Positions 47,573-48,583 of a stretch of 64,000 bases of DNA are shown one piece after another. The stretch lies in the sequence record NC_014792.1. One strand, 5' to 3'. A program made the position numbers and the translations under genes. Numbering within the stretch: position 1 is the stretch's first letter; every line of letters begins with the position of its first letter. This stretch comes from Escherichia phage vB_EcoM_VR7. The notes beneath the pieces were generated by a model. That model searched no databases. It was given only the letters and a program-made list of their open reading frames with translations, and was not told the origin of the DNA.

Positions 47573-48583
47573 TTAACGATAATAGGAATTGTGGTTGTCA
47601 AGATATACCTCTTCAACAAACTTGTCCCAGAACTTCATGTCTACCTTATCGGGCATACCGTTCTTTGCCGCCCAGATGGCATTGGTTTCGACTTCATCGA
47701 CGATTGCTTCAAGTTCAGCTTGTACATCTTTAAAAGCGTGTAGGCCTTGTTTGATTTCAAGGATAAATGGAGCCGTACGTAAAGGATATTGGAGATCGCC
47801 TTTTTGATAGATTTCCTTTAACTGGTATCCAGCACGATAAGCATGACTCAGCGCTTTCCAGTCAATACCTTCGTTAGCTTCGGCCTTACGAGCGCGTTCA
47901 CCATATTCGGCATCAAGTTTATTCAGAGATTGCTTAAGCTCGATTAATGACAAAGTAGTTTGGTATTTGCGACCGAGAACAGTATAAAACGTTTGAGGTC
48001 CAGTTTTCTCATGGTTATGGAATACCCATTCACAGAATTCATTCTCTGGGAGACGATGCTTAATATCTTCAACTTTAGTGCGACGTTGTTTAGTCGTACC
48101 ATCTTCTTGGTAGTCAACCCACTGTTCAGGAATCTGGTTAACAATTGCCAGTACACCACGTAAAGCCGCCAGTCTAGAACCTTTAACACCATATTTTGAA
48201 GCTTGCTTACGGACGTACCCCAAATATGCTTTCATGTTGGTCGTATAGAACCGTGAACGGTTGTCTTGGATAAATTTCCATACATCTGGTAAATCGGATT
48301 TGACTACCAGGTTAGCCGGAGTGTGAATCATGTCTAGAGCAACAGTTTCACCCTCAGCCGCCAATTTAAAGAAATATTTCAGACTATACAATTCATGGTC
48401 AACATCATCTTTTGTGTTCTTGGATGCAGTGTTGTTAGTATTCAAGTTGGTATGGTTCATAGCCGTACCTAACAGAATGTCACGTGGGTGTGGAACAAAG
48501 ATTTCCTTAAAATCGACATCAGATTCAGGAGTACTTGTTCCATAAAGATGGCTACCGAAGTAGCCTTTCATAACTGTTCTCAT
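47573..48583 (-). CDS. Pol-beta-superfamily nucleotidyltransferase, unknown substrate
   Basis: 336 aa; N-terminal GSHLYGTSTPESDVDF fits the GS...DxD nucleotidyltransferase motif. Confidence 0.55.
   Translation of the reverse strand: MRTVMKGYFGSHLYGTSTPESDVDFKEIFVPHPRDILLGTAMNHTNLNTNNTASKNTKDDVDHELYSLKYFFKLAAEGETVALDMIHTPANLVVKSDLPDVWKFIQDNRSRFYTTNMKAYLGYVRKQASKYGVKGSRLAALRGVLAIVNQIPEQWVDYQEDGTTKQRRTKVEDIKHRLPENEFCEWVFHNHEKTGPQTFYTVLGRKYQTTLSLIELKQSLNKLDAEYGERARKAEANEGIDWKALSHAYRAGYQLKEIYQKGDLQYPLRTAPFILEIKQGLHAFKDVQAELEAIVDEVETNAIWAAKNGMPDKVDMKFWDKFVEEVYLDNHNSYYR

Follow-up and report, generated by a model that had tools for sequence, protein, structure and literature searches.

The nrdC.11 gene of Escherichia phage vB_EcoM_VR7 encodes an RlaP-family nucleotidyltransferase with a candidate role in RNA repair

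The window analyzed here is a stretch of 64,000 nucleotides (nt) from Escherichia phage vB_EcoM_VR7 (NC_014792.1), and all positions refer to this stretch. The list of open reading frames (ORFs) with their translations contains a single ATG-to-stop ORF that spans positions 47573..48583 on the minus strand and codes for 336 amino acids (aa) plus stop. Judged from its sequence, this ORF is the ortholog of gene nrdC.11 of phage T4 and belongs, with its catalytic residues intact, to the RlaP family (PF10127) of Pol-beta-superfamily nucleotidyltransferases (NTases). A GAGG motif is located 7 nt upstream of the ATG. The N-terminus of the product, MRTVMKGYFGSHLYGTSTPESDVDFKEIF, contains G10-S11 and D22-x-D24; in the annotation of some relatives, the protein starts at Met5 and comprises 332 aa. 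The host genome of the gene is that of a T4-like phage (Straboviridae, Tevenvirinae), with Gaprivervirus or Dhakavirus as nearest annotated relatives in the searched collections. The protein was 100% identical to the “NrdC.11 hypothetical protein” of vB_EcoM_VR7 (P0001), 99% identical to that of VR25, and about 82% identical to those of T2 and T6.

T4 NrdC.11 and its orthologs in T2, T6, JS98, SP18, VR5, VR7, VR25, and VR26 are products of the same gene, with the same length and a position between the nrdC.x block and mobD.1. In T4, the homing endonuclease gene mobD is inserted beside nrdC.11, whereas the phage of the window has a gene for a small membrane protein there. The syntenic gene in SP18 and VR25 is labeled nrdC.11, and its RefSeq label is “nucleotidyltransferase.” Homologs were present in 1,545 of 50,697 phage records, and a HMMER search against 1.84 billion cluster representatives yielded 3,009 matches at E ≤ 0.001, 776 of them at E ≤ 1e-30, mostly over the full length of 300 to 350 aa. 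The gene is already known: it is a named T4 gene, annotated as an NTase, assigned to RlaP, and the phage representative of this family in the literature. A preliminary description of the locus had considered that the protein might match a well-characterized enzyme of the T4 family, and the match found is a named gene but not a well-characterized enzyme. Many GenBank and UniRef entries of NrdC.11 orthologs carry the name “thioredoxin,” an annotation error apparently propagated from the gene name nrdC, and one ortholog entry is erroneously named “putative HNH homing endonuclease.”

The assignment to a family is based on the match of NrdC.11 to Pfam PF10127 (“RlaP, RNA repair pathway DNA polymerase beta family”) with 43.1 bits at a cutoff of 23 and E = 5.2e-11, which covers residues 8 to 134 of the protein and only positions 25 to 142 of the 249 positions of the profile. 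A precomputed PF10127 match was present in all close and distant homologs, and PHROG 388 (“nucleotidyltransferase”) aligned with NrdC.11 from end to end with E = 1e-131. Membership of NrdC.11 in the RlaP-family NTases is regarded as highly probable.

Conservation was evaluated in an alignment of the window protein with 129 homologs of 22 to 93% identity, including those of KVP40-like vibriophages and Aeromonas phages and many metagenomic sequences. The codons for G10-S11, which represent the hG[GS] motif of Pol-beta NTases, are located at 48551..48556 on the minus strand, and those for D22-V23-D24, the DxD pair of metal-binding carboxylates, at 48512..48520 on the same strand. G10, S11, D22, and D24 were invariant in 130 of 130 sequences, as were G15, S21, Q127, G135, G228, R230, K243, H247, R250, and P267. 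The preliminary description had proposed a Pol-beta-type NTase at this locus from a GS motif followed by DxD, and had named a lack of DxD conservation among homologs as evidence to the contrary. Sequence family, conservation, and fold bear out the proposal, and such a lack can be dismissed because D22 and D24 are invariant. Near-invariant positions were D60, D62, N56, K26, K134, R137, and K278, and position 84 was always D or E. The codons for D60-V61-D62 (48398..48406, minus strand) encode the probable third metal-binding carboxylate, with D60 conserved in 129 and D62 in 127 of the 130 sequences. This assignment comes from the profile alignment with canonical RlaP and from the place of both residues at the start of the strand 61-67, and either Asp may be the one that binds the metal. 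D84 had been a candidate for the third catalytic carboxylate and was dropped in favor of D60/D62 after the profile alignment and the strand assignment.

An AlphaFold2 model calculated from the 130-sequence alignment had a mean predicted local distance difference test score (pLDDT) of 91.3 and a predicted template modeling score (pTM) of 0.76, and displayed a minimal NTase fold. The NTase core, about residues 1 to 135 (48179..48583, minus strand), is homologous to canonical RlaP, and its alpha/beta structure contains the strands 2-9, 23-30, 44-48, and 61-67. The C-terminal half of the model is helical and ends with a long terminal helix, 316-335. Between its helices, a beta-rich insertion of about residues 150 to 211 (47951..48136, minus strand) with the predicted strands 154-158, 164-168, 184-191, 195-202, and 205-208 appears in addition. 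It is specific for the NrdC.11 clade, since 42 to 62 residues were aligned there in the cellular relatives and the canonical RlaP of about 273 aa has no counterpart; that it binds RNA is a guess. The C-terminal helical domain, about residues 212 to 336 (47576..47950, minus strand), carries the conserved basic residues R230, K243, H247, R250, and K278 and is likely to line the cleft on the side that binds NTP and RNA (NTP, nucleoside triphosphate). Fold comparisons returned ANT(4'), LinB, AAD(9), kanamycin NTase, the “nucleotidyltransferase-like protein” 3c18, and HalB, which have the generic minimal NTase core in common with NrdC.11; the kanamycin and lincosamide NTases and 3c18 also share the scaffold, in which a helical domain comes after a minimal NTase domain. 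Neither the sequence of the protein nor the profile of 130 sequences retrieved a relevant entry from the Protein Data Bank, in a copy that evidently lacked the crystal structure of PfRlaP, the Pseudomonas fluorescens family member.

To place the phage protein among its cellular relatives, 185,579 species genomes were scanned, which gave 194 relatives. From these, 80 bacterial or archaeal loci were kept that encoded full-length proteins with 33 to 50% identity to the query. ORFs at a distance of up to 6 kb from the homolog were all clustered, recurrent clusters were identified with Pfam, and neighbors were counted over 79 loci. These counts are lower bounds because only 46 of the 79 loci reached a length of at least 12 kb. 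Several other recurrent clusters were discarded as antisense shadow ORFs in GC-rich DNA. A contig of 915 kb with the homolog P0138 bore no domain annotation and gave no information on neighbors. The most frequent neighbor was the gene of a canonical RlaP of full length, with about 273 aa and a PF10127 score of 237 bits; it lay immediately downstream in the same orientation in at least 31 of the 79 loci. Genes for RtcB (at least 10 loci), for Pnkp with kinase, phosphatase, and ligase domains (at least 8), for Hen1 (at least 7), and for Ro60 with TROVE and vWA domains (at least 6) occurred within 6 kb. The association with RNA ligases is shared by these cellular clade members and the bacterial RlaPs.

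The canonical RlaP gene usually overlaps that of the NrdC.11-type protein by 4 nt (loci L013-L085; for example, L036 8001-9743, L071 8001-9787, and L067 136-1910). In these pairs, the catalytic residues of both partners are intact, and the cellular NrdC.11-type copies retain every catalytic and basic residue, no matter whether they are paired with a canonical RlaP. In the 79 bacterial and archaeal relatives, G10 was a G in 78, S11 an S or A in 78, and DxD was present in 77. The NrdC.11 type and the canonical RlaP occur together in many bacteria and do not replace each other. Pairs with catalytic residues intact on both sides suggest a module of two NTases whose roles are not redundant.

When the profile of the NrdC.11 clade was compared with that of 22 adjacent canonical RlaPs, the match had 95% probability and E = 2.7e-8 and was confined to the N-terminal 130 columns. 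S/G39-S40 of the canonical proteins were opposite G10-S11, the invariant D51/D53 opposite D22/D24, and their invariant D84 was within one column of D60/D62. The sub-alignments of the C-terminal halves, compared with hhalign, did not match significantly (E = 0.51); in this alignment, the invariant K243, H247, R250, and P267 faced the invariant or near-invariant K161, Y165, R168, and P184. The two types of protein are alike in their Pfam family and in the homologous NTase core with GS, DxD, and a third Asp. Judging NrdC.11 by its AlphaFold2 model, both probably also consist of two domains, with a C-terminal half that is helical and has many conserved basic residues. They differ in that NrdC.11 is about 60 to 80 residues longer, contains the beta-rich insertion, and belongs to another similarity cluster, cluster 5 instead of 1a.

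Orthologs of NrdC.11 had been found to match the COG3541 nucleotidyltransferase domain (Nolan et al. 2006, PMC1524935). As reported in PMC12776372 and PMC7824862, Burroughs and Aravind (2016) named PF10127 “RlaP,” short for “RNA ligase-associating Pol-beta,” after its linkage with RNA ligases, and their prediction was that RlaP puts back nucleotides lost from RNA ends. Two RlaPs, PfRlaP from P. fluorescens and PaRlaP from P. aeruginosa, were characterized by Carruthers, Fatma, and Huang (bioRxiv, December 2025, PMC12776372). Both attach one or two nucleoside monophosphates (NMPs), or deoxynucleoside monophosphates, to an RNA 3'-OH with a preference for Mn2+, are inactive on DNA and E. coli protein, favor, in a mimic of cleaved tRNA, its 5' half, and partly rescue the aminoacylation of a tRNA missing one nucleotide of the anticodon loop (PMC12776372). 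The structure of PfRlaP is composed of an NTase domain and a helical domain, the last helix of which packs back onto the NTase domain, and “T4NrdC.11” was counted as an RlaP without known function and put into similarity cluster 5 (PMC12776372). The substrate, taken as unknown in the preliminary description, is accordingly less open than claimed there, since members of the family to which T4 NrdC.11 was assigned add one or two NMPs to an RNA 3'-OH (PMC12776372). A full-text literature search for “nrdC.11” found no functional study. Among the roles proposed initially, RNA tailing or repair was best supported, by the RlaP family and by the cellular relatives in RNA-repair clusters; synthesis of a nucleotide signal and protein nucleotidylation found no such support.

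The tRNA repair by Pnk and Rnl1 of T4 was the first RNA-repair system discovered. The host answer to Pnk/Rnl1 are nucleases like RloC that also excise the wobble nucleotide, and plain heal-and-seal repair should fail there. RloC is a widespread relative of PrrC, and its excision of the wobble nucleotide was predicted to defeat the heal-and-seal repair of phages (PMC2610378). In the reading that we consider fairly probable on the basis of the data combined here, NrdC.11 adds nucleotides to a broken RNA 3'-OH between healing by PseT and sealing by RnlA of a nuclease-trimmed tRNA. The polynucleotide kinase/phosphatase PseT would first produce the 3'-OH and 5'-phosphate ends. The broken RNA may then be held in a basic cleft formed with the conserved C-terminal domain of NrdC.11, while D22, D24, and D60/D62 of the NTase core would bind two divalent metals, probably Mn2+, and the NTP. 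A template-independent extension of the free 3'-OH by one or two nucleotides would restore what a host anticodon nuclease had trimmed, for instance by a wobble excision of the RloC type, before RNA ligase 1, RnlA, would seal the tRNA. RtcB is less suited to a product with a 3'-OH than a 5'-phosphate ligase like Rnl1. NrdC.11 contributes to this scheme its family membership, its NTase fold, an active site that is conserved and intact, and cellular clade members that lie in an RNA-repair context. Addition to an RNA 3'-OH, an activity known from the two bacterial RlaPs, and nuclease-trimmed tRNA as the target would be carried over to the phage clade by analogy.

Evaluation of this scheme needs to consider several points that weigh against it. 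The assayed RlaPs belong to similarity cluster 1a and NrdC.11 to cluster 5. Significant alignment to canonical RlaP is limited to the N-terminal 130 or so residues of NrdC.11, and its C-terminal half, which is about 80 residues longer and includes the beta insertion, remains without a significant profile match. Many bacteria keep the NrdC.11 type and a canonical RlaP adjacent to each other with both active sites intact, which argues against a functional redundancy of both and leaves room for a difference in substrate or product. The phage gene nrdC.11 is not adjacent to pseT or rnlA; VR25, the NrdC.11 of which is nearly identical, encodes both, about 88 kb away from nrdC.11. The gene is dispensable on laboratory hosts, where T4 tolerates a deletion from nrdC.11 to mobD.3 (PMC9825161). 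Homologs of NrdC.11, Pnk, and RnlA have nearly the same host-genus counts among T4-like phages, which is explained equally by shared descent; since this co-distribution follows phylogeny, it is not independent evidence.

If it is true that NrdC.11 restores the lost nucleotide, it would supply the third step that the phage pathway has been missing and mark a further round of a classic arms race. About 1,500 sequenced phages have the conserved gene. The nucleotide-restoring hypothesis is already in the literature; the window adds no new element to it, and its value is that of a confirmation. A side gain is that cellular relatives of the NrdC.11 clade are so often paired with a second, canonical RlaP.

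One explanation for the presence of both types side by side in bacteria, to which we give a fairly low probability, is that the NrdC.11 type is a functionally distinct enzyme and not just a divergent RlaP. The translationally coupled pairing, the intact active sites of both partners, and the clade-specific beta insertion and C-terminal domain point in this direction. Both NTases may form a two-enzyme, possibly heteromeric, system that divides its labor with respect to the nucleotides, the RNA ends, or the acceptor, and T4-like phages would have kept only the half sufficient against nucleotide-excising anticodon nucleases. Alternatively, the NrdC.11 type may use a substrate other than RNA.

NrdC.11 may also be an RNA 3'-end NTase outside anticodon-loop repair that tails or marks the acceptor ends of host or phage tRNAs or mRNA fragments, with consequences for their stability or use, or that mends damaged 3'-CCA ends. 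Such a function is rather unlikely. The characterized RlaPs label rRNA-sized and full-length tRNA species besides fragments and have little NTP specificity (PMC12776372), and the C-terminal architecture of the clade together with its coexistence with canonical RlaP suggests a distinct substrate. One NrdC.11 homolog also adjoins genes for a CCA-adding-type NTase and YqeY. This is a locus on a phage-like metagenomic contig of 140 kb (L006 8001-10216), where genes for a YqeY-domain protein and for an NTase of the PolyA_pol/CCA-adding type come after that of the NrdC.11-type RlaP. The upstream side codes for a zeta/AAA_33 kinase, a metallophosphatase, and an ATP-dependent ligase, and the whole looks like a compact RNA-end repair cluster. 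Class II CCA-adding enzymes and PolyA_pol (PF01743) proteins resemble RlaP as members of the Pol-beta superfamily with template-independent nucleotide addition to a tRNA 3'-OH. They differ from NrdC.11 in that they have another body and tail architecture, act at the acceptor end, and do not match in sequence. The comparison with CD-NTases, MNT, and CCA-adding enzymes or poly(A) polymerases suggested in the preliminary description gave no match to any of these families: PADLOC reported none for NrdC.11, the NCBIfam MntA score was 13.2 bits at a cutoff of 60 and over 18 residues only, and the head domain PF01743 was not found in the Pfam search at E ≤ 1. Moreover, the recurrent neighbors of the clade are the break-sealing systems RtcB and Pnkp/Hen1 plus Ro60, not genes for 3'-end maturation.

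An MNT-like activity would mean that NrdC.11 AMPylates or otherwise nucleotidylates a host protein, for instance, a HEPN RNase toxin or a defense effector, and neutralizes it in this way. Weak echoes of MNT in fold and motifs may be seen in NrdC.11, but this possibility is very unlikely in view of the low MntA score and the missing PADLOC match, and the bacterial RlaPs did not label E. coli proteins (PMC12776372). In addition, no HEPN gene is located beside nrdC.11 in phage or cellular relatives, and the cellular neighbors are RNA-repair enzymes.

It is highly improbable that NrdC.11 synthesizes a nucleotide or oligonucleotide signal or decoy like HalB or a CD-NTase, for instance, one that interferes with host defense. 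The similarity in this case is the generic core also shared with 3c18, LinB, and kanamycin NTase. HalB of the Hailong system (PDB 9dbh/9dbj) is an oligo-dA-producing protein of 217 aa that cooperates with the HalA channel; NrdC.11 is 11% identical to it, has no such partner, and has no sequence-family relationship to it. No CD-NTase or cGAS structure was near the top of the fold match lists, PADLOC remained without a match, and the sequence family is RlaP. The fold matches to ANT(4'), LinB, and AAD(9) would also agree with nucleotidylation of a small molecule in the style of aminoglycoside or lincosamide NTases, to which we attribute next to no probability.

The nrdC.11 gene is preceded on the minus strand by a gene for a membrane protein of 150 aa (48580..49032; PHROG 944, E = 1.7e-55), and the stop codon of the latter and the ATG of nrdC.11 share 4 nt (ATGA). 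Due to this overlap, both genes are probably co-transcribed and translationally coupled. The membrane-protein neighbor recurs in the annotations of SP18, VR25, and T6 and has no known link to RNA repair. In ESCO10, a “polynucleotide kinase” adjoining nrdC.11 (locus L003 3067-3519) turned out to be the mislabeled membrane protein. Two positions upstream of nrdC.11, a MobD.1/y05I-like gene (49042..49599, minus strand) codes for a product with the Pfam domains T4_y05I_N and T4_y05I_C, which is described as a putative transcription factor and has no evident functional link to nrdC.11. No RNA-ligase or RNA-repair genes were found beside nrdC.11 in the window, where the flanks consist of the membrane-protein gene, the MobD.1/y05I-like gene, and small hypothetical ORFs; the term “stand-alone” used for the NTase at the outset is right for this phage. 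A second RlaP-like protein was not found in the window.

Scans for sigma-70 promoters and terminators gave results not clearly above the expectation from shuffled sequences and were not used. Codons 7 to 12 of nrdC.11, over the GS motif, contain a hairpin (GGCUAC-UUCG-GUAGCC; 48550..48565, minus strand) with a perfect stem of 6 bp and a UUCG tetraloop. It is kept in VR25 and ESCO10 and is probably there by chance, because synonymous changes abolish it in SP18. On the other side of nrdC.11, an ORF of 98 aa (47017..47313, minus strand) has a signal-peptide-like N-terminal segment and a low-complexity middle part rich in Gly, Ser, and Gln. It is followed by a strong bidirectional GC-rich hairpin at 46992..47013 (AAAGGACCC-CGAA-GGGTCCTTT) with T-runs on both strands.

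A second and weaker NTase candidate at 61330..62295 on the minus strand, also mentioned in the preliminary description, proved to be a genuine NTase-fold protein as well. Its product of 321 aa contains DUF7277 and DUF7275 and belongs to PHROG 2141. A homolog is present in 730 phage records, which range over T4-like, Pseudomonas, Gordonia, and Streptomyces phages, and its annotation is almost always “hypothetical.” In 64 homologs, D25, D27, and E69 were invariant and G6 and S7 nearly so, and the C-terminal domain contained many invariant His, Asp, and Glu residues. The NTase fold was confident, with the tRNA-modifying toxins MenT1, MenT4, and TglT and with ANT(2'') as the nearest structures. 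Neither a sequence-family match to NTase toxins of the MenT or AbiEii type nor pairing with an antitoxin was found for it, and a profile comparison with RlaP revealed no significant relationship. The candidate is a member of a separate NTase-fold family without a characterized member, is not an RlaP, and is less explored than NrdC.11. An HNH homing-endonuclease-like ORF of 216 aa (60683..61333, minus strand; PHROG 374, E = 2e-59; no Pfam match) overlaps the end of its gene by 4 nt. On the other side, at 62580..63839 on the minus strand, five small paralogous ORFs of 65 to 96 aa form the “W-SSS-C array,” with tails of the W-x-SS-x-C type that read …WVSSSSEC, …WVSSSAMC, …WVSSSYEC, …WYNSSMSC, and …WYPSSC.
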